This document shows positions 2,335 through 37,839 of a stretch of DNA of 38,031 nt, in pieces. Position 1 is the stretch's first letter. The number at the start of each line of letters is the position of its first letter. Below the pieces are notes generated by a model. It had not been told where the DNA came from. It worked only from the letters and a program-made list of their open reading frames with translations, and did no database searches. The DNA comes from a virus. The stretch lies in the IMG/VR virus record IMGVR_UViG_3300014202_000415; one strand, 5' to 3'. The position numbers and the translations under genes were made by a program.

Positions 2335-2344
2335 GTGATATAAT
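2335..2344 (+). promoter_or_regulatory. Extended -10 promoter GTGATATAAT (late class)
   Basis: Exact copy of the 10-mer found at 8 sites. Here it is followed by a hairpin rather than by an ATG. Confidence 0.55.
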
Positions 2345-2361
2345 AAGAGTACGAGGTAATT

Positions 2362-2386
2362 AGCCCGCAACCAGCGGGCTTTTTGT
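2362..2386 (+). terminator. Intrinsic terminator-like hairpin plus U-tract, part of the conserved element 2351-2386
   Basis: AGCCCGC-aacca-GCGGGCT gives a 7-bp stem, followed by TTTTTG. Near-identical element at 32100-32136. Confidence 0.7.
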
Positions 2387-2391
2387 GGTTT

Positions 2392-3297
2392 ATGCTTACA
2401 TACAGCCTATTACAAACGACCTGCCAGGAGGAGAGTAGCGACACAAGCGCGCCCTCACTCTCATTTTTTAAACGTAACATTAACGTAGGGCTGGTGACGC
2501 TGCAAGGCGCTTTGGGCTCGTATTACACCAATGACACCAAAACCGACACCACCATAGCTGGTACCAGCAGTTACAGGTTGCCAGTAAACTGTATACGGTT
2601 AAAGGCCCTCACCATTACAGTAAGTAACATAGAGTACCCAGCGGCAGAGATATACGATGAGGCATTATGGCGCTCTATAAAGGGCAATGCAATTGCACAA
2701 ACGGGCGATATACCCATGTATTATTTTGCACGGCGCGACACGGTAGAGGTTTACCCCACACCAGCAAGTAGCAGCAACACTATTACGCTCTATTTTGAGA
2801 GTGGAGGCAAGGAGTTGGTTGCTGACGACTACACTGACGGTACAATTTTAACGCTTGCTAACCTTGGTACAGCGGTTACGGGCAGCGGCACGACATGGAC
2901 GAGCGCAATGGCAAATAGGTATTTGCGCATAAGCAGTGAGGGTAACTGGTACAAAATAGCCTCTTTTGGTACAACAACCACCCTAACACTGGCAGACAAG
3001 TACCAGGGCATAGCCATTGCGGCAGGCAGTGAGGCATACCGTATTGGTGAGGTACCCAATACCCCGCAGGCAACCCATATTTTACCCGCGTATTTTGCCT
3101 TATGGCGCTATTACGGTGGGGTTAAAAAGGACGCAACCCGCGAGCTACAGTACAGAAAAAATTGGGAGGACGGCCTGAAAGACGCGGTGGCTACCTATGG
3201 CATACGGTACTCCTCAAAGGTGATACCAAGTACACGGGGGCTGCGGCGCGGTATACGGTACTCAAACCCGAACTGGAACCCGCAGGGCATGACATGA
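2392..3297 (+). CDS. Putative head-tail adaptor / tail tubular A-like structural protein
   Basis: 301-aa ORF from ATG 2392 (the ORF track starts at TTG 2383). It lies immediately upstream of the giant tail protein. Assignment is by position only. Confidence 0.6.
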   Translation: MLTYSLLQTTCQEESSDTSAPSLSFFKRNINVGLVTLQGALGSYYTNDTKTDTTIAGTSSYRLPVNCIRLKALTITVSNIEYPAAEIYDEALWRSIKGNAIAQTGDIPMYYFARRDTVEVYPTPASSSNTITLYFESGGKELVADDYTDGTILTLANLGTAVTGSGTTWTSAMANRYLRISSEGNWYKIASFGTTTTLTLADKYQGIAIAAGSEAYRIGEVPNTPQATHILPAYFALWRYYGGVKKDATRELQYRKNWEDGLKDAVATYGIRYSSKVIPSTRGLRRGIRYSNPNWNPQGMT

Positions 3298-3301
3298 AAT
3301 T

Positions 3302-6300
3302 ATGGCTAAACAAGTGGTATCGCAAACAAAGTTTTTGGGCATTGCAGACTACGAGAAAGAGGGCGTAGAGTTTACCTATGCGTTTGGCCGTAGTGTAGAC
3401 TACCGCACTAACCCCCGCCGTTTAACGTTATTACCCCGCACAGCAAAAGAGAGTGGCAGCGTGGTTACTGGCCTCATTAAGTGGTTTGAGGAGCATAACG
3501 GCGTAGTGTACGGGTATGACGCAAGCGGCCACCTATACAGCCGCACCAGCACGCCTACGTGGACTGACTTACGCACAGTGGCTAACAGCAGTGGTAACGG
3601 GCTTGGGTATTTTGGTGAGGACGATTACCTCTATTACCCCACTGACAAGGTTATAGGGCGTTATGGCCCGCTTGGTGGCACCCCCTCGTTTGCTGACGAC
3701 TTTTTAGGGGCACAGGGCGGCGTACCAACCAATACACACGCATTAGACCTTGAGAGTGGCAGCAGCCAATACGCGAGCCGCGCAGATACGTCCTCATTAT
3801 CTATTACGGGCGACTTGGCATTAGAGATTTACGCCAAGCCCGAGAGCCTGCCTACCGCGGGTAACAGCATGGTGTTAATGAGCAAGTGGGATACCAACAG
3901 CGATGAGCGTAGTTACCGTTTTGAGTTATACGCCGTAAGCGGGTATTTTGGTGACGGCTCGGATAGCTCACTTACCATAAGCAGTAATACCACTGAGGCA
4001 CCCATAGACAGTAGCGCCAGCGGTACCAGCGGCGCGTACAGCCTCACCGCGACCAATGCGAGTTTTGCGACAGGGCAGGAGATTTTGATACACCAAACAC
4101 GGGGCACGGGTGCTGGTACGTGGCAGCGCACCACTATTGCTGGGTATACGGCTGGCACCATTACTACCGAAGACCCTCTAAATTATGACTATGCCACCAG
4201 CGGCGCTAATTGTGCACAGGTAAGAGTTTTGCCGCAATATACAAGCGTCACTATTAACAGCGGTATAACCTATACGGCAAAGGCGTGGGACGGCACCGTT
4301 GGCGGTATATTGGCGTTTTTGGCAAACTCAACAGGTACCGTTACTGGAACAATAAGCGCGGAGGGTAAAGGGTTTAGGGGTGGGGTTGGCTCGACTGGCG
4401 CTGACGGCTCCACGCCAACAACGGGGTATGCTGGTGAGGGCACCACTGGTGCAACAGTACAGCAACAAACCGCAAATGGTAACGGCGGCGGTAGTGGTAA
4501 TAACAACCGCGGCCCTTACGGTGGTACGGCCTCGGGCGCTGGCGGTGGCGGTGGTAACGGGTTAGCAGGTAGTGAGGGCGGGCCAAACGGTACGGTTGGG
4601 GGTGACCCAGGCGGTACAGCAGGTAATACAGGCCTAACCAGCATGGTGTTTGGTGGGGGCGGCGGCGCGGGTGGGTGTGATTGGCCTAGTGGTTCTGGTA
4701 ACACTGGCGGTACAGGCGGTAGAGGTGGGGGCATTGTCTTTTTAACAATTGCTGACCTAACCGTAACTGGTGCAATAAACGTAAATGGGGCAGTAGGGGG
4801 CAACGCTTCGGGCTCTAACACAAATAACGGTGGTGCGGGTGGTGGTGGTGGCTCTGCGCTTTTGAAATCTCAAACGGCTACACTAGGTACTGGTTTGATA
4901 ACGGCGAGCGCTGGAACTGGCGGGAGCGCCACAGGTAGCGGCTCGGTTGGTGCAACTGGTGGGGTTGGCCGTATACACCTTGACTACTATACGAGCTACA
5001 CAGGTACAACAACCCCCACGCTTGACGTGGCACAAGACGACACGCTGGTAACCAACACCACATACCAATTACGGTTAATGCTCTCAAGTGACGGCTCTAA
5101 CAGTGAAACATTGGCAAAAGCCGTAAGCATTACCGCTGGCACATATTACCGCTTCCATGTGTCATGGGACGCGAGCGCCGCAACCGCTACGTTTTTCCTT
5201 AATGGTGTAAGCCAGGGTAGCAAAACAGGTGCGTTTACGGCTATTTATAACAGTACCGCGGCGTTTGCCTTGGGCTGCTCGTTTGGTGCGTCAAGTACGG
5301 CAGAAAACTTTTTTGACGGGCTTTTAGACGATGGGCGCGTATGGAATACCGAGCGTACGGAGGCACAATTTTACCAGTACCTCAACCGTGAGCTTGCGGG
5401 TACCGAAGCGGGGCTAGTGGCATACTACCAACTCGACAACAACGCAGACGACAGTACCAGTAATGCAAACCACCTTACTGCCACGGGCTCACCTGTGTAT
5501 AGCACTACGGTAGCCTTTGCTGGGCCAACCTCACGGCTTGACCTTGACCAAGAGTTAAATACCAGTGGCAATACATACACCACGCCAGTAGCTATAAGTG
5601 AAACGGCAACACACAGGCAAACGTTTGTGCCAACAAAAGACCCGCAAAAGAGCGTAGAGGTGTTGGTGGCTGGTAAGGGTACTGGTGACTGGACGCTGAC
5701 GGTGCACGATGCGCAAAACCGAGTTATGGCAACCAAAACGCTGACCAATGCGCAAATGAGCGCTGGGGATATTGAGTTTACATTTAGTAGTGTTTGGCGC
5801 CCTGTTATAGGACAAACGTACCACTTCCATATTACCAGTACGGTTAATGACGGCACGGTAACTACAACAACCTCGAGTGACTTGGAAACGGTAGACTACC
5901 ACACCTACTACCAGTTTTTAGTAGACGATGTGTACCACCCGACTAAGCAAATAATAAACGTGCTGGCTATTGGTAATGAGCGGTATTTAGCTACGTATGA
6001 CGGCAGCAGCTACGACCCACACAGGCTTACGTTACCCTCGGGGCACCGTATACGGGCGTTGGCACGGTGGAATGAGTACCTGGCTATTGGCACGTGGCAG
6101 GGCACCACGGTAAAGAGTAAAGACAAAGGGCACATATTTTTATGGAATGGCTACAGTAAAACGTACGATTTTGATTTTGAGGTACCCGAGGGGGCCATAA
6201 ACGCCTTGCAGGGTAATGAGGGTGTGCTGCACATGATAGTTGGGCACAAAGGCCAACACCTCAAGTATATTGGCGGCAATAAACCTACCCCCGTACGGCG

Positions 6301-6940
6301 TGTACCTAAAATGACTGACGCAACTTATATTGAGGTATACCCTGGTGCTATGACCATGTGGGGGGCGTTACTGCGCACAGGGTGGGCAGGTAACAGCGAC
6401 AATAGCGTAGTTGAGCGCGGCGTATATACCTATGGCACCATAACCGACACACAGCCTGAAACGTTGTCATACGACTACCCGATAAGTACGGGCACCAGGA
6501 CGGGTACAGGGGTGCAAATTGGTGCCGTCATACCTGTTAATGACCAACTACTCATAAGCTGGAAAGACGGGGTGGCATACGGTGTTGACGTGGTAGACCC
6601 AACAGCAGCCCCGTTTGCAACTGGTACGCTTGAGTTGCTTATTGGCGATAACAGCGAGATTTGGCGCGAAAAACTGTTTGACGTTGCACGGGGTGATTTT
6701 GAAGCACTAAACAGCGGCGAGAGTATGACCGTTAAATATAAGCTCGACAAAGCAAGCAACTGGACGAGTAGTGACGCAGAGGCTACCGCAGGGGCTAAAA
6801 AGGTGCGGTTACCCGTATTGGGTACTCGGTATAAAGAGGCACAAGTGGCAATAGACTTTGCCACCTCGGTAAGCACGAGCCCTGCCCTATTGGGCCTGGG
6901 GTACTCGTTTGACGACAACAAAACAGAGGAGGATTTTTAA
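3302..6940 (+). CDS. Giant tail (nozzle / tubular B-like) protein with inserted LamG domains and a glycine-rich domain
   Basis: 1212-aa ORF. LamG-type signature NFFDGLLDDGRVWN...YYQLD plus an earlier LamG-like segment. About 200 aa of GGxGG-rich sequence (nt 4366-4985). The N- and C-terminal parts have a repetitive beta-strand (propeller-like) pattern. Confidence 0.8.
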   Translation: MAKQVVSQTKFLGIADYEKEGVEFTYAFGRSVDYRTNPRRLTLLPRTAKESGSVVTGLIKWFEEHNGVVYGYDASGHLYSRTSTPTWTDLRTVANSSGNGLGYFGEDDYLYYPTDKVIGRYGPLGGTPSFADDFLGAQGGVPTNTHALDLESGSSQYASRADTSSLSITGDLALEIYAKPESLPTAGNSMVLMSKWDTNSDERSYRFELYAVSGYFGDGSDSSLTISSNTTEAPIDSSASGTSGAYSLTATNASFATGQEILIHQTRGTGAGTWQRTTIAGYTAGTITTEDPLNYDYATSGANCAQVRVLPQYTSVTINSGITYTAKAWDGTVGGILAFLANSTGTVTGTISAEGKGFRGGVGSTGADGSTPTTGYAGEGTTGATVQQQTANGNGGGSGNNNRGPYGGTASGAGGGGGNGLAGSEGGPNGTVGGDPGGTAGNTGLTSMVFGGGGGAGGCDWPSGSGNTGGTGGRGGGIVFLTIADLTVTGAINVNGAVGGNASGSNTNNGGAGGGGGSALLKSQTATLGTGLITASAGTGGSATGSGSVGATGGVGRIHLDYYTSYTGTTTPTLDVAQDDTLVTNTTYQLRLMLSSDGSNSETLAKAVSITAGTYYRFHVSWDASAATATFFLNGVSQGSKTGAFTAIYNSTAAFALGCSFGASSTAENFFDGLLDDGRVWNTERTEAQFYQYLNRELAGTEAGLVAYYQLDNNADDSTSNANHLTATGSPVYSTTVAFAGPTSRLDLDQELNTSGNTYTTPVAISETATHRQTFVPTKDPQKSVEVLVAGKGTGDWTLTVHDAQNRVMATKTLTNAQMSAGDIEFTFSSVWRPVIGQTYHFHITSTVNDGTVTTTTSSDLETVDYHTYYQFLVDDVYHPTKQIINVLAIGNERYLATYDGSSYDPHRLTLPSGHRIRALARWNEYLAIGTWQGTTVKSKDKGHIFLWNGYSKTYDFDFEVPEGAINALQGNEGVLHMIVGHKGQHLKYIGGNKPTPVRRVPKMTDATYIEVYPGAMTMWGALLRTGWAGNSDNSVVERGVYTYGTITDTQPETLSYDYPISTGTRTGTGVQIGAVIPVNDQLLISWKDGVAYGVDVVDPTAAPFATGTLELLIGDNSEIWREKLFDVARGDFEALNSGESMTVKYKLDKASNWTSSDAEATAGAKKVRLPVLGTRYKEAQVAIDFATSVSTSPALLGLGYSFDDNKTEEDF

Positions 6941-6941: not shown

Positions 6942-7178
6942 ATGGACGAGCAAAAAATACGGCAGTTGATACGTGATGAGTTAAGCAGGTTGCACCAAAG
7001 CCAAATACCCGCTGGTACCATAAAACAGCGGCATATTGACGGCATGGTAATTACCCGAGGGTTGGCCGCAGACCTGCCAACAGACGGTGAGCAGGGCATA
7101 CAGGCGTATTTTGCTACCGATACTAACGTGCTCTATATTTGGAATGATAGCGCGTGGGTGAGCGAAACGTTGACGTGA
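6942..7178 (+). CDS. Small tail-fibre-like protein
   Basis: 78 aa from ATG 6942 with an AGAGGAGGA SD. The C-terminal ...YFATDTNVLYIWNDSAW motif resembles motifs common in phage fibre proteins. Confidence 0.6.
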   Translation: MDEQKIRQLIRDELSRLHQSQIPAGTIKQRHIDGMVITRGLAADLPTDGEQGIQAYFATDTNVLYIWNDSAWVSETLT

Positions 7179-7184
7179 TATAAT
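7175..7184 (+). promoter_or_regulatory. Late promoter GTGATATAAT, 7 nt from ATG 7192 (leaderless)
   Basis: TTGACGTGATATAAT-taagtgt-ATGGCA. Confidence 0.65.
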
Positions 7185-7191: not shown

Positions 7192-8136
7192 ATGGCAGAT
7201 ACAGAGTTTCAACAATTAGCTAAGACAGACCGAAACCCCGCACAGGAAACGAGGTACCAGGAATTGTTAAAAACGCAGGGCGGCAGCGCTGGTGGTATCT
7301 CGCTTAATGATGTGGGCGGCAGCGCGGTAGACTTTGCTAAAGGGTTAAATGCAAGCGAGGACGAGGCATTTAACCAGTACGTTATGAGCCTGCGGGCACA
7401 GGCTAAACCCCTTGATATTTTTACCTCACTTGAGCAAAACGCTGGCTTACCCGAGATGCGCAAAACAGCCACAACCCTACGGGGCCAGGTAGGCAGTATT
7501 GAGGATTTACTTAGCCAGGTAGAGGGTGACGTAAGCGCTACAACCCGTGACAGCTTGGTAACTGAGGCACAACGGCGCGGTATGGTTAGTGCCAAAAAAG
7601 AGCCGTGGATTGAGCGACTAAATAAACTGGCAACCTCACTTGGGCGGGTAGAGCAAGGTATAAGCGCCGCTGGTGCCGATATTAGCCAACGCACGGGGTT
7701 GGTATTACAGGGGCAGCAGCAAGAGTTAGAGCCCTATAAAATGAAAATACAGGTCATGGCTGACCGCAGCGCACGGCTTATGACAGGGTTTACCTCAGAC
7801 CGTGAGGCCAACCTAACTATACTTATGGATAAATTACAACGGGAGCGCCAGCTCGATGATAGAGAGTGGCAAGAGGCAAGCGACCTGGCACAAAGCAAGC
7901 TCGAGTTTGACCAGCAAAAAGAGTTATTAGCCTCAAAATTGGAAACACAAATAGTAGAGCGTGGCGGGCGCAAGGTACTACTTAATATGCAGACAGGTGC
8001 AGTGGTAGCCGACCTTGGCGCAACTGGTGGCGGCGGTGGGGTACCAGCAAACCTTGGTAGTTACTATGGCACCACCACAACAACTAACCCACAAAGCAGT
8101 GGCAGTAGTATAACCGACCTATGGAATGTGGGGTAA
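7192..8136 (+). CDS. Hypothetical virion protein with coiled-coil segments
   Basis: 314-aa ORF. The start ATGGCA lies directly behind a -10 box. Confidence 0.7.
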   Translation: MADTEFQQLAKTDRNPAQETRYQELLKTQGGSAGGISLNDVGGSAVDFAKGLNASEDEAFNQYVMSLRAQAKPLDIFTSLEQNAGLPEMRKTATTLRGQVGSIEDLLSQVEGDVSATTRDSLVTEAQRRGMVSAKKEPWIERLNKLATSLGRVEQGISAAGADISQRTGLVLQGQQQELEPYKMKIQVMADRSARLMTGFTSDREANLTILMDKLQRERQLDDREWQEASDLAQSKLEFDQQKELLASKLETQIVERGGRKVLLNMQTGAVVADLGATGGGGGVPANLGSYYGTTTTTNPQSSGSSITDLWNVG

Positions 8137-10569: not shown

Positions 10570-10579
10570 GTGATATAAT
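10570..10579 (+). promoter_or_regulatory. Late promoter GTGATATAAT, 6 nt from ATG 10586 (leaderless)
   Basis: GGTGATATAAT-atacct-ATGGCA. Confidence 0.65.
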
Positions 10580-10585: not shown

Positions 10586-10876
10586 ATGGCAGTAGACGTA
10601 CAGGCAATTAGGGAAGTGTTTAGGCAACAGTTTGGGGGCCAACCCTCACGTGCTGGCGTTGTTGGAGCCCCGCCAGTGAGCCCCGTACAACCACTTACGC
10701 CTAATATGCAAAACCGACAACCCCCACAGCCGAGCCAAGCAGAGGTTACCCCAAGCTCGGGCACTATTAGCGCGTTAGGACAGCAAAAAGGCGAGGCGCA
10801 AGACATTACAAAGGCGTTAATAAAACGATTGGAAAGATTGGGGGGTAATGATGCAGGGGCAGGGGGTATGGTATGA
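10586..10876 (+). CDS. Hypothetical Pro/Gln-rich protein
   Basis: 96-aa ORF starting 6 nt after the -10 box. Confidence 0.6.
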   Translation: MAVDVQAIREVFRQQFGGQPSRAGVVGAPPVSPVQPLTPNMQNRQPPQPSQAEVTPSSGTISALGQQKGEAQDITKALIKRLERLGGNDAGAGGMV

Positions 10877-11139
10877 GCAAAAAACAAGACAACCAAAATA
10901 TAACCTGGTTACAGGTTAATAACATAGTGCCCATTGTCTTAATTGTAGTTAGCTCGTTGTTGGGGTACGGCGTTACGCTTACGCGTATTGCCGTTTTAGA
11001 GAATAAAATAGACTACATGACGAGGCAGCAAGATATAGTTTTACAAACCCTTACCTCAGTAGAGGGCCGTTATGGCAGGCTGGCAGTACAGGTTGGCAGG
11101 GTTGAGGAGCGGTTAGGTATGAAAAAAACAGAGGAGTAA
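10873..11139 (+). CDS. Membrane-anchored coiled-coil protein (lysis accessory / spanin- or holin-like)
   Basis: 88 aa with one TM segment (IVPIVLIVVSSLLGYGV) followed by a coiled coil. ATGA overlap with the upstream gene. Immediately upstream of the endolysin. Confidence 0.6.
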   Translation: MSKKQDNQNITWLQVNNIVPIVLIVVSSLLGYGVTLTRIAVLENKIDYMTRQQDIVLQTLTSVEGRYGRLAVQVGRVEERLGMKKTEE

Positions 11140-11143
11140 ACGT

Positions 11144-12058
11144 ATGGCAGTAAACGTACAAATACCAATTTTAGGCGACAAATACCAAGATTACCGCATG
11201 GGTATACCAGGCGATAGTTATAATTGGGGGCCAGTCGTTAACGCTAAAGACATACAGTATTTTGCCCTGCACCACAGCGTAACGGCTCAGACGGCAAAAA
11301 ACGATGGAAACTGGCGTGCTGAGGCAGACAAAATAGCCAACCTACATTTAAACCGTACCTATGTTGGGGCTGACGGTAAAACGTACACATGGCAAGGGGT
11401 AGGGTACCGCTTTATTATATGCTCAGACGGCACCGTAGCCTATGTAGGCGACCTCTCACACGGCGGCAGCGCTGTAGGCGGCAATAACCACATTATTTTT
11501 AGCGCCTGCCTTATTGGCGACTTTACAAAAGAGCTACCCACCGCGGCACAGGTACACAGTGCACACATACTGTGCGACTGGTTTATAAATAAAATGCCGC
11601 AGTACCCTGGTATTAGCGGTTGGGATAAAATAATAGGGCACCAAGACGCAAACAAATTACTGCACCTCTCGGGTGCAGAGGCCACAGCCTGCCCAGGCAG
11701 TAATTGGCGTGTAGCTGGCGACAGTTTACGCGAGCGCGTCATTAACGACCACTTTGACGGGTACCCAAACCCGCAGCCAACGTGGGCACTACCAGAGCCG
11801 ACACCAACCCCACCTGCACCGCCCGTGCCACCAGAGCCCGTACCGCAGCCACCTGCGCCCGAGCCAACACCACTACCGCCAACACCAGAGCCAATACCGA
11901 CACCCCCAGCACAGGAGGAGCCAGGGGTAAATTATAAAGAGCTGGCAACCAAGCTAAAAAAATACTTATATGACATTAAAACTATCGTTTACGGAAAAGG
12001 ATTTTGGTGGACGAAAGTGGCCAGAGTTAAAAAAGTATTTACCGAAAATAGCCTTTGA
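11144..12058 (+). CDS. Endolysin: N-acetylmuramoyl-L-alanine amidase (Amidase_2 / PGRP type) with a Pro-rich linker
   Basis: FALHHSVT..., GYRFII..., IIGHQDA...ATACPG zinc-amidase motifs. A PEPTPTPPAPPVPPEPVPQPPAPEPTPLPPTPEPIPTPP linker is followed by a short basic C-terminus. Confidence 0.8.
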   Translation: MAVNVQIPILGDKYQDYRMGIPGDSYNWGPVVNAKDIQYFALHHSVTAQTAKNDGNWRAEADKIANLHLNRTYVGADGKTYTWQGVGYRFIICSDGTVAYVGDLSHGGSAVGGNNHIIFSACLIGDFTKELPTAAQVHSAHILCDWFINKMPQYPGISGWDKIIGHQDANKLLHLSGAEATACPGSNWRVAGDSLRERVINDHFDGYPNPQPTWALPEPTPTPPAPPVPPEPVPQPPAPEPTPLPPTPEPIPTPPAQEEPGVNYKELATKLKKYLYDIKTIVYGKGFWWTKVARVKKVFTENSL

Positions 12059-12173
12059 GCGCGAGCGACAAGCGACCTATAAAGCGTTTGAGTCTATTAT
12101 AGATAGGTTGAGCGCAGCTATAATTATAGGGTTAGGAATAATAATAATTTTACTTGGTGTGATAAAATTGTAG
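11970..12173 (+). CDS. Overlapping +1-frame ORF with a C-terminal TM segment (independent gene or frameshift extension of the endolysin)
   Basis: 67-aa ORF with no SD. It starts 89 nt before the endolysin stop and ends in AAIIIGLGIIIILLGVIKL. Its frame opens at TAA 11955-11957, at the start of the A7 run 11956-11962. Confidence 0.4.
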   Translation: MTLKLSFTEKDFGGRKWPELKKYLPKIAFERERQATYKAFESIIDRLSAAIIIGLGIIIILLGVIKL

Positions 12174-12188
12174 TAGGAGGTATTGAGT

Positions 12189-12419
12189 ATGGATAACAAT
12201 GTTTTGGCAGTACCAGCAGTTGCGGCAATTATGGTAATTACCGAGGCCTTTAAAGAGGTGGTACCTAATAGGTACCTGCCACTCGTGGCACTCTTTTTAG
12301 GCGTGGCGTTTGGTTTACTCGAAAATAAAAGTTTACCTGGCCTTATCCAGGGCATACTCTATGGCGGTAGTGCCATGGGGCTTTACCGAGGGTATAAGGT
12401 TGCAGTTAAAGGCGAGTAA
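12189..12419 (+). CDS. Holin
   Basis: 76 aa from ATG 12189, with a TAGGAGGT SD 8 nt upstream. Two hydrophobic helices (LAVPAVAAIMVITEAFK, LPLVALFLGVAFGLL) and a charged C-terminus. Adjacent to the endolysin. Confidence 0.65.
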   Translation: MDNNVLAVPAVAAIMVITEAFKEVVPNRYLPLVALFLGVAFGLLENKSLPGLIQGILYGGSAMGLYRGYKVAVKGE

Positions 12420-12467: not shown

Positions 12468-12785
12468 ATGGCTGATGCAGAGCGAAATTATTTTTATTGG
12501 CGTAATGACCAGGGGGTACCTATAAAATACCATGTTACCAGAGCACCAGAAATTATCCTTGGCGAGCCAGGGCAAGCGCCCGAGGCCGCGCGAGAAAATA
12601 CGGGGCAGCCAGTTTGTGAAGCGGGAGGAGAAAACACGCCCGAAATTAACAATACGCAACCCGTTTGAGGGTTGGAAAAAAAAGCAAAAGGTTACGCCAC
12701 CTAGATAACCTGCTGCACTATACGGGGTACTGGCATGGTACCTATTTTAGAAATGGCGTTGCACAGCCCCGCAAAAAATGACCCC

Positions 12786-12815
12786 TTGACACAACCAAAA
12801 AAACCGTGGTACTTT
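12786..12815 (+). promoter_or_regulatory. Candidate leftmost early promoter, CCCCTTGACA-18-TACTTT
   Basis: TTGACA at 12786-12791. GTGGTACTTT resembles GTGATACTTT of the promoter at 308. Confidence 0.45.
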
Positions 12816-13641: not shown

Positions 13642-13656
13642 GGCTAAACTGGATAC

Positions 13657-13685
13657 TTGACAACCACCTAACAATGGGCTATACT
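13657..13685 (+). promoter_or_regulatory. Early promoter TTGACA-17-TATACT with the ACCTAACAAT spacer
   Basis: TTGACAACCACCTAACAATGGGCTATACT. Confidence 0.7.
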
Positions 13686-13705
13686 TAATACGAAAGGTGG
13701 AAAAC

Positions 13706-16564: not shown

Positions 16565-16578
16565 CAATGAGCTATACT
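16550..16578 (+). promoter_or_regulatory. Early promoter TTGACA-17-TATACT with the ACTAACAAT spacer, 9 nt from ATG 16588
   Basis: TTGACAAATAACTAACAATGAGCTATACT. Embedded in the 3' end of the CAP gene. Confidence 0.7.
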
Positions 16579-16587
16579 ACGTAAGAT

Positions 16588-17877: not shown

Positions 17878-17913
17878 ACGTAATGGCCTGGGGGCGGTGT
17901 AAAAACTGCCCCC

Positions 17914-17942
17914 TTGACATTAACCTAACAATCAACTATACA
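17914..17942 (+). promoter_or_regulatory. Early promoter CCCCTTGACA-17-TATACA with the ACCTAACAAT spacer
   Basis: TTGACATTAACCTAACAATCAACTATACA. Confidence 0.65.
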
Positions 17943-17963
17943 TATAAACAGGAGGAAAAAAAT

Positions 17964-21392: not shown

Positions 21393-21396
21393 CCCC

Positions 21397-26042: not shown

Positions 26043-26349
26043 CATACAAACACGCACCTACGGCGCAGAGGGTGATTTTAGCAATAATACGCAGGTGTGG
26101 CAGCAACTCTTATACATAGTGAGCAAGGCGGGCCTTACGCCGCTTGCCGTAGCAAAGCACGAGTTTTACCCCAAGGGGTTAAGTGGTGTAGTTATTATTG
26201 GTGAGAGCCACGTAGCCATACACACCTACCCTGAGTATAACCAAGCACTCATAGTGGTAAGTACCTGTGGGTTAGACGCCAGCGGGCACATATTACGTTT
26301 TAGTATGGCGCTGCAAAAAATATGGAAATCTACCGTAGTAAACCAGTAA
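26032..26349 (+). CDS. speD: S-adenosylmethionine decarboxylase (SpeD/AdoMetDC class 1)-like pyruvoyl proenzyme
   Basis: 105 aa from ATG 26032, overlapping the methyltransferase gene by 11 nt. [38 protein letters not shown] parallels B. subtilis SpeD [38 protein letters not shown], including the E-S self-cleavage site. Confidence 0.8.
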
Positions 26350-26600: not shown

Positions 26601-26613
26601 ACACGAGAAGCCT

Positions 26614-27039
26614 ATGAGCAAAGCAATTGTTAAACATAAACGAGCAGGTAGACCAACAGTATTTACTAAAAAAGCTGTGGCTTTATTAGTACAGGCGTTT
26701 AAATACGGTTGCAATGATAGTACGGCGTGCCAATACGCTAAAGTGTCAAGAGAGGCATATTACGACCATTTAAAGAAAAACGAGGATTTCGCCACAATTA
26801 TTATGCAGGCACAAAACTACCCACGGCTATTAGCAGGGCAAGTGGTTATACAGAGCATGACTAAAAAGGGTGACGTTATGAGCGCGCGCTGGTGGTTAGA
26901 GAAAAAACACGCTGACGAGTTCGGCGGCGCACCCCCCATACAAAACAATACCCTCAACATATTTAGTTTTACTGACGAGCAAAAAGACACATTTAACACC
27001 CAATTTAGAGATTTTTTACGGAGGAGGCAATATGCGTGA
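26614..27039 (+). CDS. terS: Terminase small subunit (HTH type)
   Basis: KRAGRPTVFTKKAVALLVQAFKYGCNDSTACQYAKVSREAYYDHLKKNEDF is the typical N-terminal HTH of small terminases. Located upstream of TerL. Confidence 0.55.
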   Translation: MSKAIVKHKRAGRPTVFTKKAVALLVQAFKYGCNDSTACQYAKVSREAYYDHLKKNEDFATIIMQAQNYPRLLAGQVVIQSMTKKGDVMSARWWLEKKHADEFGGAPPIQNNTLNIFSFTDEQKDTFNTQFRDFLRRRQYA

Positions 27040-29057: not shown

Positions 29058-29317
29058 TAACTATTACCCCTGGTGACCAAACGCCACCACCGTTTGCGTA
29101 TAAAGAGCCATACTATATTAGCGTTATGCTTGGTAAACGTGCCTCGTTTGTTGAGAAGCCGTTTAGGTGTTTTAACTGCGGGGCCATACTGTTTAAATAC
29201 TATACAGACGTGCACATAGTATTTGACGGGCTCATAAGTGACGCTGACGCACATAAATACGGCTCACCTATTGACGTTATGTGCCGCAGGTGCAAAATTG
29301 TGGTGCGTATTTTATAG
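29054..29317 (+). CDS. Zinc-ribbon protein, Com-like (tentative)
   Basis: 87 aa from ATG 29054 with a GGAGG SD and an ATGA overlap with terL. Contains FRCFNCGAILFKY...VMCRRCKIVVRIL. Confidence 0.55.
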   Translation: MITITPGDQTPPPFAYKEPYYISVMLGKRASFVEKPFRCFNCGAILFKYYTDVHIVFDGLISDADAHKYGSPIDVMCRRCKIVVRIL

Positions 29318-29383: not shown

Positions 29384-29393
29384 GTGATATAAT
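29384..29393 (+). promoter_or_regulatory. Late promoter GTGATATAAT, 6 nt from ATG 29400 (leaderless)
   Basis: CGTGATATAAT-taagct-ATGGCA. Confidence 0.65.
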
Positions 29394-29399: not shown

Positions 29400-31508
29400 A
29401 TGGCAGGTTTTAACGAAACAAACACTTTGGGTGAGGATGAGGCGCGGGTTGGGTTATTGACCCAGGAGGACGCGCTTACCCTCAATATGACCGACCAAGA
29501 CGTAGGCCGCCTTATAAAGGGGCGCATTACCAATAGCGGAAAGTTTTGGGATAAGGAGCTTAACCTCACTAACGTACGCGACAGTAACGAAAAATACTAT
29601 CTCAATAAAGCATTAGACGAGGCCGCCCTATACGAGTACCAGGTGCCATATAAAGATAACCGCATATTTTTGAGCGTGGAAACTATGGTACCTATGGTAA
29701 ACGCCCGTATGGCTATGCCTATTGTGACCGAGGCGCAAGACACGGAGGCATCACGTGAGCTGGCTACTGACCTTGGGTACTCGCTTATGGGGCTGTATGA
29801 CGACCTAAGCCTCAAGCCTAAGTTTAGTATGGTAACCCGCCACTTGGTTATGGGTTTTAGATTGGCGTGTTTAAAGTACAGTTGGGATGCGGGCGGTGGG
29901 TTTTTTGACGAGGAGGGCGAGCCTATGGGTGAGATTGCCGTTAATTGGGTACGGCCCCAGCGCCTCATTATAGACGAGGGAGCAGACGACATTAGTGATG
30001 TACCGCTTATTGCTGAGGTTATAACCAATACGGCTGAGGAGATTATTTTAAAGTACCCCGAGAAGACACAGGAAATATACCGCGAGTTTGGATTTGTTAA
30101 AGGTACACGTAGCCAGTTGGGCAGCAAGCGCAACTACCATGAGGCATGGTTTAGCTATTACGACAAAAAGGGCATAAAGCAAGAGGCTGTAGCCTGGTTG
30201 GTTGGTAATACGCTGCTGGGTAAAATGAAAAACCCGCACTGGAACTATGACGAGTGGGAAACTGACAGTAACGGCGATAAGCACCGCCTCAACTTCTTTA
30301 AACGCCCCCAAAAGCCCTACGTGCTGTTTAACTACATAAACACAGGTAAGTACATACTGGACGATACCAGCTTGACCGAGCAGGCAAGCAACCAACAGGA
30401 CATACTTAATAAGCGTGGGCGGCAAATAGTCGAGAACGCTGACAGCGCCAACAGCGGCACAGTCTATAACAGCGAAATGATAAGCGCCGATGACGTAAGC
30501 AAAATTACGGGTGACCCGAGCGAGCGGGTGGTGGTTAAAGGGCCAGTGGGTAATGCTGCTATGCGGCTGCCAACCAACCTACTGCCCGAGTATGTGCTAC
30601 AGGATAAGTACGATGCACGTAATGAGATTGATAACATTTTTGGTACTCACGCACCTATACGCGGCGAGAAAAGCAAAACAAACACGCTGGGGCAAGAGGT
30701 TATGAGCCAGCGCAGTGACCTTGGCCGCACACAAACGCTTGCTGATGCTATGGAGGGTGGCGGCACACGGCTGTACCAAGGGTTAGTGCAAATGATGAAA
30801 GTATTTTGGGATACGCCACAAAAGGTACAGTACACGGGCGCTGACGGTAAAACCATGTTTTTAGAGTTTAGCCGTAACATGATACAAGACGGGGTAAAGG
30901 TACGGGTTAAAGCGGGTAGCGTGCTGCCTGACGACAAGTTTACTAAGCGGGAGGAAACGCTAAAGGCGCTGGCACTGCTTGACCCATTAAGCATTGCCGA
31001 GGGCTTGAGTAAGCCGAACCCCAAGGAGTTTGCTAAGCGCATGGTGCTGTTTAAAGCATTTTTGCCACGCTATATGACCGAGGTACTGCAAGACGCAGGC
31101 GAGGGGCAGGTAGACGCTGACGCACTCGACCACATTAAGAAGCTCAACTATGGTGAGCTGGTGCAACCAGGTAAAGAGGTTAAAAAAGAACACCTGGCTA
31201 CCCATGAGGTGTTTATAAAAAGCGATGAGTTTAAAGAGTTGACCCCCGAGGTGCGACAGCTACACTTTGCCCATGTACGCATGGAGCTTACTGTTGCTAA
31301 AGAGGCATTAGGTATGGATGGTGGCACTGAGGCACCGCCAGGTGGGCCGTTAGGTGAGGCTACCCCAGGTGGTGAGGGTACGGGTTTACCAGGGCAAGCA
31401 CCGCCAGGTGGTGAGGGTGAGCCAGCAGCCCCAGCACTACCAATGGGCGGGCAGGGTAATTTTGTGCAGGCACTTATGGCTCGGTTAAAGGGCGGTGGGC
31501 AGCAGTAG
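29400..31508 (+). CDS. Portal protein
   Basis: 702-aa ORF just downstream of terL, with portal-typical size. Gly/Pro-rich acidic C-terminal tail. Assignment by position and size. Confidence 0.65.
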   Translation: MAGFNETNTLGEDEARVGLLTQEDALTLNMTDQDVGRLIKGRITNSGKFWDKELNLTNVRDSNEKYYLNKALDEAALYEYQVPYKDNRIFLSVETMVPMVNARMAMPIVTEAQDTEASRELATDLGYSLMGLYDDLSLKPKFSMVTRHLVMGFRLACLKYSWDAGGGFFDEEGEPMGEIAVNWVRPQRLIIDEGADDISDVPLIAEVITNTAEEIILKYPEKTQEIYREFGFVKGTRSQLGSKRNYHEAWFSYYDKKGIKQEAVAWLVGNTLLGKMKNPHWNYDEWETDSNGDKHRLNFFKRPQKPYVLFNYINTGKYILDDTSLTEQASNQQDILNKRGRQIVENADSANSGTVYNSEMISADDVSKITGDPSERVVVKGPVGNAAMRLPTNLLPEYVLQDKYDARNEIDNIFGTHAPIRGEKSKTNTLGQEVMSQRSDLGRTQTLADAMEGGGTRLYQGLVQMMKVFWDTPQKVQYTGADGKTMFLEFSRNMIQDGVKVRVKAGSVLPDDKFTKREETLKALALLDPLSIAEGLSKPNPKEFAKRMVLFKAFLPRYMTEVLQDAGEGQVDADALDHIKKLNYGELVQPGKEVKKEHLATHEVFIKSDEFKELTPEVRQLHFAHVRMELTVAKEALGMDGGTEAPPGGPLGEATPGGEGTGLPGQAPPGGEGEPAAPALPMGGQGNFVQALMARLKGGGQQ

Positions 31509-31515: not shown

Positions 31516-31525
31516 GTGATATAAT
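31516..31525 (+). promoter_or_regulatory. Late promoter GTGATATAAT, 9 nt from ATGGCA 31535
   Basis: TTGACGTGATATAAT, the same 15-mer as at 7170-7184. Confidence 0.6.
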
Positions 31526-31534: not shown

Positions 31535-31720
31535 ATGGCAAAAGCAAATGCAAAAGCACCAGTAGGACAAGGCGGCAAGTTTGCAGCTATGAAACAGCGG
31601 CTTGCTAAGCAAAAGGGTGATAAAAAGGTAGAAGACCCAGGCGCTATGGCAGCGTTTATTGGACGTAAAAAATACGGCCCGCACCAAATGGCAATGATGG
31701 CCCGAGCAGGGAGAAAATAA
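31535..31720 (+). CDS. Small basic head-module protein
   Basis: 61 aa from ATGGCA 31535. ...GGKFAAMKQRLAKQKG...PGAMAAFIGRKKYG... is a pattern recurrent next to portals in many phages. Confidence 0.55.
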   Translation: MAKANAKAPVGQGGKFAAMKQRLAKQKGDKKVEDPGAMAAFIGRKKYGPHQMAMMARAGRK

Positions 31721-32021: not shown

Positions 32022-32048
32022 TACGGCGCTCTAAACCATTTTGACCCC

Positions 32049-32076
32049 TTGACAAAACGACTAACTTTGATATAAT
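32049..32076 (+). promoter_or_regulatory. Capsid-operon promoter CCCCTTGACA-16-TATAAT with TG extension
   Basis: TTGACAAAACGACTAACTTTGATATAAT. Confidence 0.7.
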
Positions 32077-32110
32077 ACGTGCTTAATACAGTATAAATAA
32101 CGAGGCAATA

Positions 32111-32136
32111 AGCCCGCAATTGGCGGGTTTTTTTGT
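32111..32136 (+). terminator. Terminator-like hairpin plus U-tract inside the capsid mRNA leader (conserved element 32100-32136)
   Basis: AGCCCGC-aattg-GCGGGTT followed by TTTTTTG; about 83% identical to 2351-2386. Confidence 0.7.
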
Positions 32137-32162
32137 TCTCAAAAAAGTAAAGGAGTACAAAT

Positions 32163-33230
32163 ATGACATTTACAGACCGCGTTAAGTCAATTACTCAAGA
32201 CGAGATTTTACCCAAAGTTATAGATAACGTCCTCTCAGACAGCTTTGTGCCGTTTAGGTTCCTTAGTAACGGTAAAAAGTGGAATGGCGAAACACTGAAA
32301 CGCCCAATGAAAATTGCCAAAAACACACTTGGTGGCTCATTTAGCGGCCTTGATGTGCACAACACTGGCACAGTTGAAACCCGCGTACTCATTGCATACG
32401 ACCCGAGAGGGTACGAAATCCCCGTTGGGATTAGCGGCATGGAAAAGGCCGTTAATGCAACTGAGGCACGAGTGCTTGAGTTAGTGCGCACTGAGCTTGA
32501 GAGTGCACAACAGGATATGCTTGACGACATTAGTGATATTTTGTACGCAGACGGTACGGGCAACTCAAACAAGGATTTCCTTGGATTTGATGCGCTTGTT
32601 GATGACGGTACCAGTGCAGCCACTATTGGAGGCTTGAGCCGCACAACCTACCCCTCACTTGCTGGGGTACGTACGGCATCGGGTGGCACAATGGATTTGA
32701 CCAAACTTGCAACCCTGGTATCTGGTATCTCGGGTGGCTCTGCCTCAAAGCAGCGCCCAACCATTATATTCTCTAACGAAACCGTTTGGGATTTGTTTGA
32801 GAGTATTTTGAGCCCGACAGTAACGGCAAACTACGAAGCCCTCGGGTACCCGTATGTGAGCCGCTCAAGTAAAGGCACTATCCGCGCAGCCGAGTTAAAG
32901 GGTGGCGCAGGGTTTACCTCACTTGTCTATAAAGGTATCCCATGGGTAGCTGACGAAAAGGCAACTGCACAAACTGTGTGGGCCATAAACGAAAACTACA
33001 TCGACTGGTTCGGGTTGACTGACCCAGACCTCAAGGGCATAGACCTTGGAAGTGACACAATTGACGGGGTGTATGCAGAAGCCCCCTCAAAGAATACAGG
33101 TATGCAGTGGACGGGCTTTATGCGCCCAACCAACCAACACGGTGAAGTTGCCCATATTTACTTGCTCGGTAACCTGGTTACATTCCAGCCGCGCAGGCAC
33201 GGACGACTGACAGGTGTAACAACTGTATAA
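32163..33230 (+). CDS. Major capsid protein (HK97-fold type)
   Basis: 355-aa ORF with its own strong promoter and an AAAGGAG SD. LYADGTGNSNKDFLGFDAL resembles the HK97-family G-loop region. Codon usage is distinct from the rest of the genome. Confidence 0.65.
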   Translation: MTFTDRVKSITQDEILPKVIDNVLSDSFVPFRFLSNGKKWNGETLKRPMKIAKNTLGGSFSGLDVHNTGTVETRVLIAYDPRGYEIPVGISGMEKAVNATEARVLELVRTELESAQQDMLDDISDILYADGTGNSNKDFLGFDALVDDGTSAATIGGLSRTTYPSLAGVRTASGGTMDLTKLATLVSGISGGSASKQRPTIIFSNETVWDLFESILSPTVTANYEALGYPYVSRSSKGTIRAAELKGGAGFTSLVYKGIPWVADEKATAQTVWAINENYIDWFGLTDPDLKGIDLGSDTIDGVYAEAPSKNTGMQWTGFMRPTNQHGEVAHIYLLGNLVTFQPRRHGRLTGVTTV

Positions 33231-36228: not shown

Positions 36229-36234
36229 CAACTA

Positions 36235-36266
36235 CCCCGCTTGGGAAACCAGGCGGGGTTTTTTGT
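36235..36266 (+). terminator. Rho-independent terminator
   Basis: CCCCGCTTGG-gaaa-CCAGGCGGGG gives a 10-bp stem (one G-U pair), followed by TTTTTTG. Confidence 0.8.
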
Positions 36267-36278
36267 GGCTTACAAAGC

Positions 36279-36288
36279 GTGATATAAT
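36279..36288 (+). promoter_or_regulatory. Late promoter GTGATATAAT, 6 nt from ATG 36295 (leaderless)
   Basis: CGTGATATAAT-aggggt-ATGGCA. Confidence 0.65.
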
Positions 36289-36294
36289 AGGGGT

Positions 36295-37341
36295 ATGGCA
36301 TTGCAATTTGACGGCTCCAATGATTTTATACGCTCTGCTGGTGCTATAGCCTTATGCCCAGCGGCAACTTACAGTATTGAGTTTAAACTAAAGTACCTGT
36401 TTGCCACCTCAAGCGTATCCGAAAAAGGCTACATGGCGTTTGGTGGCGCTTCCCCTACTGACGGTGGCGTAACTACGATATTTTTACAACGGAATGGCGA
36501 AGCCCACCGTATGTATTTTGGTGGCTATACAGACGATAGCGCAAATACAACCATGGTGCAAAACACGTGGTATGATTTTTACCTGGGGCACGATAATACA
36601 AACAACAAGGCGTATTTTGGGTTTAACGGTACGGTACGTGAGGTCACTGATGCACAAAACCATAATACGGCAGCCCAAGTATTTTGGCTTGGCGCTGGCT
36701 ACGCGGCCTATTTTAACGGCATATTTGATGAGGTTCGCGTATCAAATAATATACGGCATACGGCCAATTTTACACCCTCTGAGGTTAGGTATGAGGCAGA
36801 CGCAAATACTATAGCTTTATGGCACATGGACGAGGGCAGCGGTACTTTAGTCGCTGACGCATCGGCAAGTAATTTTGACCTAACCATAGCAGGTGATACC
36901 ACCGCCCCCTCATGGGTATCTGGGTATGCGTTTATAACCAACCAAGCACCAAATACCCCCACAATAAGCAGCCCCACAGCCAGCCAAACGGGGGTAAGCA
37001 TTAACCCGACAGTTACCAGTAGCGCGTTTAGTGACGATGACGTAGGCGACACTCACCAGGCGAGCCAATGGCAGGTGGCAACGGATAGTGGGTTTACGGC
37101 TGTTGTATGGGATAGCGGTACTGATACAACCAATAAAACGAGCACCGTAGTTAATGCAGCAAACGGCACCTTTGCTGGGGCATTAAGCGGTGAAACTACT
37201 TTAGCAAATAGCACCGTATATTATGTGCGCGTGCGACACCAGGATGATAGCAGTGAGTGGTCATCATATAGTACGGGCGTATCATTTACGACTGCTGCCC
37301 TCCCTAGCGGCCTTGGCGGTAAGCTATTGCTGCTTTTGTAG
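36295..37341 (+). CDS. Tail fibre / receptor-binding protein: LamG (concanavalin-like) domain plus an FN3/Ig-like domain
   Basis: LQFDGSNDFI...FNGIFDEVRVSN...LWHMDEG is a LamG signature. The C-terminus PNTPTISSP...THQASQWQVATDSGF...VYYVRVRHQD is an FN3-like repeat. Confidence 0.7.
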   Translation: MALQFDGSNDFIRSAGAIALCPAATYSIEFKLKYLFATSSVSEKGYMAFGGASPTDGGVTTIFLQRNGEAHRMYFGGYTDDSANTTMVQNTWYDFYLGHDNTNNKAYFGFNGTVREVTDAQNHNTAAQVFWLGAGYAAYFNGIFDEVRVSNNIRHTANFTPSEVRYEADANTIALWHMDEGSGTLVADASASNFDLTIAGDTTAPSWVSGYAFITNQAPNTPTISSPTASQTGVSINPTVTSSAFSDDDVGDTHQASQWQVATDSGFTAVVWDSGTDTTNKTSTVVNAANGTFAGALSGETTLANSTVYYVRVRHQDDSSEWSSYSTGVSFTTAALPSGLGGKLLLLL

Positions 37342-37343
37342 GT

Positions 37344-37353
37344 GTGATATAAT
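37344..37353 (+). promoter_or_regulatory. Late promoter GTGATATAAT, 6 nt from ATG 37360 (leaderless)
   Basis: TGTGATATAAT-ataaac-ATGAAA. Confidence 0.65.
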
Positions 37354-37359
37354 ATAAAC

Positions 37360-37839
37360 ATGAAAGCAAACCGCGGAATGTACCGAGATGCAAACTCTAT
37401 ACCAATACAGGGTATGAGTATGGTTGAAACCAAGGTAATGACCCTTGCAGGCGGTACGACAGACGACCCTGGCGACTATGACGGCACAGGTAACCCCGCA
37501 ACCCTCTTTACGGTAACTGGTGAGGTATTACTGGTTGTTTTTGGCTCATGCGACACTAATTTAGCAGGTGACAGCGCCACTATTGAGGTCGGGTTTAGCG
37601 GTAATACCGCAGCCCTTATTGCCCAAACAACAGCAACAGATATTGACGATGGTGATGTGTGGCTTGATGCAACCCCAGGGGTTGGTGGTGAGGCGTTGGG
37701 CTCAAGTGCTGTATTTGTTGTTAATGACGGTGCAGACGTAATACAGACAGTTGCAACGGCAAATATAACCGCAGGCGTGCTTAATTACTTCTGTTTATGG
37801 CGGCCCCTCTCCTCTGACGGTAACGTAGTAGCCGCATAA
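37360..37839 (+). CDS. Hypothetical tail-associated beta-rich protein
   Basis: 159-aa ORF. Confidence 0.6.
   Translation: MKANRGMYRDANSIPIQGMSMVETKVMTLAGGTTDDPGDYDGTGNPATLFTVTGEVLLVVFGSCDTNLAGDSATIEVGFSGNTAALIAQTTATDIDDGDVWLDATPGVGGEALGSSAVFVVNDGADVIQTVATANITAGVLNYFCLWRPLSSDGNVVAA

Follow-up and report, generated by a model that had tools for sequence, protein, structure and literature searches.

The closest described parallels to the promoters considered here come from two phages of Thermus thermophilus with genomes much larger than the one at hand, phiYS40 and P23-45, whose early genes are transcribed from -35/-10 promoters (phiYS40) or by a phage RNA polymerase (P23-45). Their middle and late genes are served by extended -10 promoters without a -35 element, which are recognised by the host polymerase. 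The middle and late mRNAs of phiYS40 are mostly leaderless (PMC3594737), and gp39 of P23-45 blocks promoters that depend on a -35 but not those of the extended -10 class, and acts as an antiterminator at intrinsic terminators (PMC3351154). In 49 bacterial species the transcription start site lies 7 bp past the -10 element, and TG or TRTG is enriched at the extended position (PMC12641261); in Deinococcus a -10 motif adjoining the open reading frame (ORF) drives leaderless genes, and the spacing between the two is critical (PMC12340547). Here we describe an arrangement of this kind in IMG/VR virus record IMGVR_UViG_3300014202_000415, a single DNA stretch of 38,031 nucleotides that was analysed as a whole and is called the window below. 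Its distinguishing element is the 10-mer GTGATATAAT, an apparent extended -10 promoter that in most cases stands only 6-9 nt in front of an ATG.

GTGATATAAT occurs eight times in the window, on the + strand only (at 2335, 7175, 10570, 20845, 29384, 31516, 36279 and 37344), as against a mean of 0.06 copies and a maximum of 1 in dinucleotide-preserving shuffles. The broader pattern TGNTATAAT has nine matches, the ninth being TTGATATAAT at 32067. These copies and their rarity had been reported in a preliminary description of the sequence, and both hold. All nine have an exact TATAAT with TG one base upstream of the hexamer (-15/-14), and all nine sit within an intergenic gap or overlap the end of one. 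At seven of them TATAAT is followed by an ATG, after 6 nt (10586, 20861, 29400, 36295 and 37360), 7 nt (7192) or 9 nt (31535), just as first described, and these ATGs open ORFs of 61-702 codons. An ATG at a spacing of 6 or 7 at six or more of nine sites has a chance probability of about 7e-8. The start reads ATGGCA in six of the seven cases (five of the six at 6-7 nt, as already remarked in the preliminary description, together with 31535) vs. 5 of the 55 other gene starts (Fisher p = 4.9e-5). The sites and the cistrons that adjoin them, here termed leaderless-type where the ATG is promoter-adjacent, are the following (aa, amino acids).

2335-2344, + strand: predicted extended -10 promoter; hexamer 2339-2344, predicted start A2351, no ATG there; best -35 match CTGCCA (4/6).
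7175-7184, + strand: predicted extended -10 promoter; its TGA (7176-7178) doubles as the stop codon of the ORF at 6942-7178.
7192-8136, + strand: leaderless-type first cistron, 314 aa, without an assigned function; 7-nt spacing, ATGGCA; the 808-aa gene at 8140 is apparently coupled to it.
10570-10579, + strand: predicted extended -10 promoter, 4 nt past the stop codon of the 808-aa gene.
10586-10876, + strand: leaderless-type first cistron of the lysis block, 96 aa; 6-nt spacing; the block comprises an 88-aa membrane protein, an amidase and a holin.
20845-20854, + strand: predicted extended -10 promoter; the TAA of its TATAAT (20851-20853) is the stop codon of the ORF at 20410-20853.
20861-21226, + strand: leaderless-type first cistron, 121 aa, without an assigned function; heads the GroES/GroEL/methylase/terminase block.
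29384-29393, + strand: predicted extended -10 promoter; 66-nt gap from the stop at 29317, after a terminator-like hairpin (29278-29309).
29400-31508, + strand: portal gene, leaderless-type; 6-nt spacing.
31516-31525, + strand: predicted extended -10 promoter, 7 nt past the portal stop.
31535-31720, + strand: gene for a basic protein, 61 aa; the 9-nt spacing would give a leader of 2-3 nt at most; the orthologue in relative L003 has 6-nt spacing.
32049-32076, + strand: predicted capsid promoter; perfect TTGACA, 16-nt spacer, TG-n-TATAAT, 12/12 match.
36234-36259, + strand: strong intrinsic terminator; 11 bp with 8 G-C pairs, U6; closes the preceding unit.
36279-36288, + strand: predicted extended -10 promoter.
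36295-37341, + strand: leaderless-type cistron for a 348-aa virion structural protein; 6-nt spacing; no upstream ORF within 66 nt.
37344-37353, + strand: predicted extended -10 promoter, 2 nt past the upstream stop.
37360-37839, + strand: leaderless-type cistron, 159 aa; ATGAAA, 6-nt spacing.

Most of the sites lack a -35 box, again in agreement with the preliminary description: upstream of the eight GTGATATAAT copies TTGACA is matched at 2-4 of its 6 positions, and random positions reach at least 4/6 in 21% of trials. The site at 32067 is the sole one of the nine with a perfect TTGACA, at a 16-nt spacer. We read the nine (G/T)TGATATAAT sites as putative promoters for the host RNA polymerase carrying its primary sigma factor (sigma-70/sigma-A type), of the extended -10 class TRTG-n-TATAAT, and those of the GTGATATAAT type would work without a -35 element. 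The TRTG or '-16 region' promoters of Gram-positive bacteria, like extended -10 promoters of the galP1 type, have the same G/A-TG-n-TATAAT and a dispensable -35, and we see no difference in sequence between them and the sites described here. That the sites are promoters is, on the sequence, very probable. An A/T-rich motif just 5' of start codons, which marks module boundaries in a phage whose relatives often have A/T-rich leaders with no Shine-Dalgarno sequence, could in principle be something else, namely an RNA-level translation enhancer (A/U-rich, S1-type) or a DNA repeat for recombination or packaging. We regard this as highly improbable. All eight specified positions of the extended -10 element (TG and TATAAT) are matched with TG in exact register, the capsid copy has its perfect -35 at 16 nt, and two copies lead in the same 6-7 nt register to a structured leader and not to an ATG; moreover the flanks of the copies are not conserved, so that they do not represent recent duplications. 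Two of the three reading frames through GTGATATAAT meet a stop codon within it.

Given a start site 7 bp past the -10 element, a 6-nt spacer places the start on the A of ATG. At the seven sites transcription would thus begin, about 7 nt past the -10 element, on the A of AUG, and yield a leaderless or near-leaderless first cistron, with the downstream cistrons of each unit relying on Shine-Dalgarno sites or tight coupling. The complete expression signal would then occupy 19 nt, in keeping with the compactness of a genome that is transcribed from a single strand. None of the seven promoter-adjacent starts has a Shine-Dalgarno sequence, and at 6-9 nt from the -10 element there is no room for one. 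Sites of the AAGGAG, AGGAGG or GGAGGT kind stand at 4-9 nt in over 20 other genes, so the contrast drawn earlier between promoter-adjacent genes and internal genes with strong sites stands, with the addition of about ten internal genes that have none.

The strongest support for a start on the A of the start codon, which the preliminary description had proposed, comes from conservation among some 96 related metagenomic loci (numbered with the prefix L), collected by capsid homology. L003, the closest long relative (capsid 74% identical), carries TGATATAAT-N6-ATG at four genes, one of them the portal gene, and TGATATAAT plus a hairpin at the capsid and adaptor genes. Across the 96 loci, TGnTAWAAT followed by the ATG of an ORF of at least 50 codons has a spacing of 6 in 48 cases, 7 in 8 and 8 in 9; every other spacing from 0 to 30 accounts for 0-5 cases, and on the minus strand there are none at short spacings. 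When the TG is not required, the relatives yield 126 non-identical TATAAT-like-N6-ATG sites, with spacer bases unconserved and the -35 mostly absent; TG stands at -15/-14 in 37% of them vs. 9% in the background. Of 33 non-identical relatives, 16 have a -10-like hexamer 5-7 nt from the portal ATG, and just one has only a Shine-Dalgarno sequence there; the orthologue of the gene at 37360 (about 160 aa) is leaderless-type in 8 of 18 relatives. A spacing kept at orthologous genes while the sequence drifts is the expected outcome of selection for a start on the A of AUG. A fixed 6-nt spacing with drifting sequence is not what compaction or A/T-richness would yield.

The sites could nevertheless be real promoters and the adjoining cistrons be translated mainly from read-through transcripts, by coupling or re-initiation that needs no Shine-Dalgarno sequence, the short distance then reflecting nothing but compaction. 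Five of the seven leaderless-type sites do have an upstream ORF whose end falls within the motif or 2-20 nt ahead of the ATG, coupled starts appear to be tolerated (3302, 8140, 10873, 20210 and 20410 have neither a Shine-Dalgarno sequence nor a promoter), and starts without a Shine-Dalgarno sequence are numerous in the relatives. But compaction predicts variable short distances, and the family peak is sharp at 6 nt (48 cases vs. 0-5 outside 6-8); the start codon at these sites is also always ATG, the codon required for leaderless initiation. Of particular interest are 29400 and 36295, both without a Shine-Dalgarno sequence, both following terminator-like hairpins and both with no upstream ORF within 66-83 nt; at 36295, where the nearest 66 nt hold none, translational coupling cannot account for the absent Shine-Dalgarno sequence. 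We consider the read-through explanation unlikely and prefer leaderless initiation at the seven sites. At 36234-36288 the order of elements is the usual one, terminator and then promoter. In the relatives, portal starts (L060, L067, L057, L076 and L068) and capsid starts (L004:10001 and L005:7650) are found 2-23 nt past a hairpin and U-tract, without a Shine-Dalgarno sequence, and many genes of the more distant relatives have A/T-rich upstream sequence only. The hosts of the wider family seem often to initiate without a Shine-Dalgarno sequence, and gene callers that require one would mis-start the promoter-adjacent genes.

The preliminary description had also taken the conservation of G-TG-A to hint at a specific recognition factor, such as a phage sigma factor, polymerase modifier or activator, acting in place of the unmodified host holoenzyme. 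The G at -16 is common to eight window sites and the A at -13 to all nine as well as to all six sites of L003, although normal sigma contacts constrain these two positions weakly, and the presence of two promoter architectures in the genome (below) suggests a switch of the sort effected by a -35 block, as with gp39 of P23-45 or AsiA of T4. This idea finds no support in the relatives, in which any of the four bases may follow TG at -13 and a purine precedes it at -16 in 82% of sites (G 44%, A 38%), as fits the general, already known TRTG '-16' element (PMC12641261). The equivalent promoters of Thermus phages are recognised by the host polymerase alone (PMC3351154). Protein annotation relied on Pfam and/or PHROGs scans that covered most ORFs of the genome, and this scope applies to all such searches below; no match to a sigma factor, an RNA polymerase or a known regulator was obtained in them, and the 808-aa and 1212-aa proteins give no polymerase signal. 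Dependence on a phage-specific factor is accordingly quite improbable in our estimation, and the A after TG is a lineage habit common to the window and L003, not a family-wide requirement.

The proposed strategy has clear counterparts. In Deinococcus-Thermus and Actinobacteria, as here, a -10 element (TANNNT) lies at a fixed short distance from the start codon (PMC12340547), but there it is a genome-wide habit of the host, whereas here it is a phage regulon with the full TG-n-TATAAT. The cI gene of lambda, when transcribed from PRM, likewise starts at the A of AUG and needs no Shine-Dalgarno sequence (cited in PMC12340547); it is a single regulatory gene with an activator-dependent promoter, as opposed to the seven structural, lysis and packaging units found here. 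phiYS40 and P23-45 are unrelated phages with hosts of a different phylum, and differ from the present case in that here the leaderless-type cistron is only the first of each unit and the motif is invariant over 10 nt. The programme of phiYS40 and P23-45 further involves a phage protein that binds the host polymerase (gp39- or gp76-like) or a shift in initiation factors (IF2/IF3). A gp39-type combination of activities would by analogy fit both the promoter-adjacent ATGs and the promoter-proximal terminators of this phage. No homologue of gp39 or gp76 and no phage RNA polymerase was recognised in the ORFs scanned, though proteins of the gp39/gp76 type are small and family-specific, so that their absence proves little. 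The leaderless extended -10 strategy itself is thus already known, and what the window adds is an unusually clean case in an unrelated, uncultured phage family.

The preliminary description had taken the motif to mark leaderless operon starts. This holds for the seven sites discussed so far but not for 2335 and 32067, where a strong terminator-like hairpin takes the place of the ATG and the motif begins a structured leader. The elements of the two leaders are as follows.

2351-2384, + strand: adaptor-operon leader; 5'-ACGAGG; P1 pairs GGT (2355-2357) with GCC (2363-2365); free energy (dG) -14.9.
2362-2380, U-tract to 2384, + strand: predicted adaptor terminator T; no Shine-Dalgarno sequence precedes the adaptor ATG at 2392.
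32100-32134, + strand: capsid leader; ACGAGG at 32100-32105; P1 pairs GGC (32104-32106) with GCC (32112-32114).
32110-32130, + strand: predicted capsid terminator T with U7 tract; Shine-Dalgarno AAGGAG at 32150-32155, capsid ATG at 32163.

Where capsid identity is 46% or more, nearly all relatives keep the order promoter, hairpin with U-tract and capsid gene, while the stem sequences differ, and CTTGACA with a -10 element is conserved 5' of the relatives' capsid gene. In most relatives the leader RNA would begin with AGAGG, 6-8 nt past the -10 element, which is the register of the leaderless ATGs. Watson-Crick pairing between the base of T's 5' arm and the three bases that follow AGA is possible in 26 of the 29 sequences; if G-U pairs are counted, it is possible in all 29. 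This pairing, P1, takes five covarying forms (GGT:ACC, GGC:GCC, GAC:GTC, AGT:ACT and AGC:GCT), and when sequences are mismatched with one another only 12% of the pairs are complementary. In the alignment P1 (columns 6-8 with 17-19) is 97% paired with compensatory changes at 3/3 pairs; none of 500 shuffles reaches the observed value, and controls with the pairing slid along give 21-56%. The hairpin T is 90% paired, with compensatory changes at 7/8 pairs. The 28 copies that a covariance model finds are without exception on the + strand, and nearly all of them stand just 5' of a capsid or adaptor gene (examples in the relatives are L027:9947-9990, L024:4915-4954 and L045:13089-13130). Columns 17-19 serve both P1 and the base of T, and since the two use common nucleotides the structures are mutually exclusive.

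Such mutually exclusive pairing is the anatomy of an attenuator, and the leader is a candidate attenuator for the adaptor and capsid genes. In the proposed mechanism the 5' (A)GAGG-N of the transcript would form pairs at the base of the hairpin's 5' arm, setting a weak P1 against the terminator T, and this switch would gate the most abundant virion genes through a putative effector. The leader is a covariation-supported structured RNA with no entry in Rfam (Rfam 15 at the gathering score gave no match in the whole window), and it is the more original element of the findings. An intrinsic terminator that comes within about 35-55 nt of a strong promoter, and before late structural genes, recalls the PR'-tR' region of lambda and its Q protein, although the leader here is much shorter than the 6S RNA of lambda. 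The ribonucleic antiterminator (RAT) elements of the BglG/SacY systems offer a second parallel: there too the base of the 5' arm of the terminator overlaps with a weak hairpin on its 5' side, the RAT, which needs a protein in order to win. The scans gave no match to Q-family, BglG/SacY (CAT/PRD) or other antiterminator genes, and inspection of the relatives by eye brought out no Q-type promoter-internal element beyond -35/-10. A general antiterminator of the kind represented by P23-45 gp39 may, by analogy, act at T instead (PMC3351154). The leader offers a route to a new antitermination factor.

Three other explanations for the leader were tried and set aside. The potentially leaderless mini-ORF ATG AGG CAA TAA with which the leader opens in L003 (3566-3577 and 13823-13834) is probably incidental, the window having ACG and other relatives AGA in place of its ATG. 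In the split Shine-Dalgarno model, as for T4 genes 38 and 25, the 5' GAGG would be brought to the AUG by the hairpin; the hairpin-AUG distance, however, varies from 8 to 22 nt, the window and several relatives carry a Shine-Dalgarno sequence of their own, and the variants AGAAGT and AGAGAC are poor Shine-Dalgarno sequences. Finally, P1 might be a palindromic DNA operator, but its loop varies in length (about 3-8 nt), which favours pairing in RNA.

The nearest named phage is TM7 phage DolZOral124_53_65 (MG269973.1; 38.8 kb), whose host field reads candidate division TM7. Its capsid protein is 36% identical over 100% of the length and its portal protein 31% over 90%; it likewise encodes Cpn60 and has a similar genome size. 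The covariance model of the leader finds no match in it. Of 11 relatives from genome collections, seven were placed in metagenome-assembled genomes (MAGs) labelled as candidate phyla radiation (CPR), namely Woesebacteria, Berkelbacteria, Parcubacteria, Gracilibacteria, Nealsonbacteria and two Patescibacteria. These labels, with the kinship to the Saccharibacteria/TM7 phage, incline us to a Patescibacteria (CPR) bacterium as the host, with some reservation. Host assignment from prophage context was given up, because the genome-collection matches are all phage-sized contigs in MAG bins and none is integrated; co-binning of phage contigs through small-size-fraction sampling is possible. The Patescibacteria MAG contigs L013, L015 and L017 have too few genes for any statement on start contexts. 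Patescibacteria are almost uncultured, and we found no description of leaderless expression in them or in their phages in the literature searched.

Taking these lines together, we consider it likely, as far as sequence comparison allows, that the phage combines leaderless first cistrons with attenuated capsid and adaptor units. A number of observations pull the other way. About ten further internal genes (e.g. 3302, 8140 and 10873) also lack a Shine-Dalgarno sequence and are apparently translationally coupled, so that its absence is not peculiar to promoter-adjacent genes; nor is that absence alone proof of leaderless translation, many genes of the relatives starting without one. A T precedes the ATG in 41 of the 55 other genes of the phage and is thus a general feature, for which reason the Y-1/R+1 start-site signature was dropped as support; in the relatives T at -1 is enriched at leaderless-type sites, with 64% vs. 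34%. The ATG at 31535 lies 9 nt from the -10 element, and at the capsid site of the window the conserved leader starts about 17-24 nt past the -10 element and not at +1. L005 and L006 (66% capsid identity) do not have the promoter-adjacent ATG arrangement. The TM7 phage is mostly Shine-Dalgarno-led, with leaders of about 20-30 nt and one TATAAT-N6-ATG site, and the leaderless habit therefore belongs to a sub-clade and not to all such phages. In the case of the attenuator, P1 has only 3-5 bp as against 8-12 bp in the terminator and should lose unaided; so short a P1 probably needs a stabilising partner, as the BglG/SacY RAT elements do, and no effector gene was recognised in the ORFs scanned. 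Function, lastly, is read from sequence throughout: what is observed is the sequences with their placement, conservation and covariation, and from these we infer where transcription starts, that the host polymerase recognises the sites, that translation is leaderless and timing late, and that T is a site of termination or antitermination.

If the leaderless reading is true, the hosts translate mRNAs with a 5'-AUG well, which bears on initiation by reduced ribosomes; the set of sites also supplies a transcription map, open to testing, of a phage family with abundant metagenomic representatives and with probable hosts that are almost uncultured. The cassette of promoter and ATG, at 19 nt, may serve as a compact synthetic part. 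A wider and decidedly tentative proposal, which we put forward as a possibility more than an expectation, is that the window stands for a large and widespread family of podophages of Patescibacteria whose late genes are expressed through two 5'-end devices of one minimal promoter: leaderless mRNAs in most units and, in the capsid and adaptor-tail units, the previously undescribed AGAGG/P1/terminator attenuator, which either the translation machinery or a putative RNA-binding antiterminator of the phage would gate. Were this true, gene-expression signals of CPR phages would be described here for the first time, and efficient leaderless translation would be implied for ultra-small, ribosome-poor hosts.

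A second class of promoter is also present. CTTGACA occurs 14 times in the window (2.6 expected), 12 of the copies being on the + strand, and seven have a proper -10 element at the right distance (307, 12785, 13656, 16549, 17913, 21396 and 32048). These -35/-10 promoters dominate the recombination and nuclease region (12.7-20.8 kb), and the extended -10-only sites head the blocks for chaperonin, methylase and terminase, for the portal, for virion proteins, for adaptor, tail and fibre, and for lysis. The downstream genes had been called virion-type (portal, virion and tail/fibre proteins), as indeed they are, and the lysis cassette and the chaperonin-terminase block may be added to them. The split between the classes is suggestive of the early/late programme of phiYS40 and P23-45, 'late' being a timing suggested by gene content, but it is not clean, as 307, 21396 and 32048, all of the -35 type, fall among 'late' genes.

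Several small features accompany the -35 type. In four CTTGACA promoters (297-338, 13646-13687, 16539-16580 and 17903-17944; also L003:~11855-11890) the spacer has the motif CTAACA at a fixed position, giving cTTGACA-N5-CTAACA-N6-TATACT-like, and a similar CTAAC lies in the spacer of the capsid promoter (32061-32065); the motif could be a regulator site or reflect common ancestry. Four -35 boxes follow CCC(C), forming CCCCTTGACA (12781-12791, 17909-17919, 21392-21402 and 32044-32054). The ATGs at 16588 and 21435 (GroES) lie 9 nt past the -10 elements of the promoters at 16549 and 21396 and have no Shine-Dalgarno sequence, so some promoters of this type may also give near-leaderless mRNAs. The sequence GCCTATGAGC (343-360 and 26605-26620; also L003:~11905) recurs shortly 3' of the promoter-like sites at 307 and 26592 (TGATAAAAT), and its copy at 26614 is the start of the small terminase gene.

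As to the genome as a whole, the first 91 nt of the window equal the last 91 (1-91 = 37941-38031), which indicates a circularly closed assembly of about 37,940 bp; the identity is an assembly overlap and does not necessarily imply a terminal repeat. The unit that begins at 37344 runs on across the circular junction. All credible genes are on the + strand, and no tRNAs were found in the window. With 25 kb as the query, megablast brought up no nucleotide-level relatives in 50,697 phage records, and protein-level matches are distant only; capsid homologues number 1475 in metagenomes, with 570 IMG/VR loci. Besides those listed above, the following genes were assigned.

2392-3297, + strand: SU10-like adaptor gene, first cistron downstream of the leader that begins at the 2335 promoter.
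3302-6940, + strand: gene for a lectin-domain tail or fibre-like protein, 1212 aa, next after the adaptor.
11144 and 12189, + strand: lysis genes, amidase at 11144 and holin at 12189 (PHROG 1299).
21435-21725 and 21739-23334, + strand: GroES-like (Cpn10) and GroEL-like (Cpn60) genes, in that order, both phage-encoded.
26614 and 27429, + strand: small terminase gene at 26614 and large terminase gene at 27429.
32163-33230, + strand: major capsid protein gene, Shine-Dalgarno-led.

Other genes identified in the scans encode RecT, a Cas4-like nuclease, VRR-NUC, a PNKP-type phosphatase and a DNA methylase. Among the accessory genes the unusual ones encode an S-adenosylmethionine decarboxylase-like protein (26032-26349), a CAP-superfamily protein (16100-16564) and a DPBB (lytic transglycosylase-like) protein (19074-19535). 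Cpn60 is present also in the distant TM7 phage MG269973, and the chaperonin may be an old family trait. The lysis-cassette-like unit at 10586-12419, headed by the 10570 promoter, encodes, besides the holin and the amidase, which has a Pro-rich linker, a Pro-rich protein of 96 aa, a membrane protein of 88 aa and a 67-aa protein whose C-terminal part carries a membrane segment. The genes at 8140 (808 aa), 10586 (96 aa) and 11144 (amidase) encode otherwise unlike proteins and have a near-identical start, ATGGCA(G/C)TA(A/G)ACG(T/C)ACA(A/G), corresponding to the peptide MA(V/L)(N/D)(V/A)Q; this could be an N-terminal signal in common or a recombination scar.

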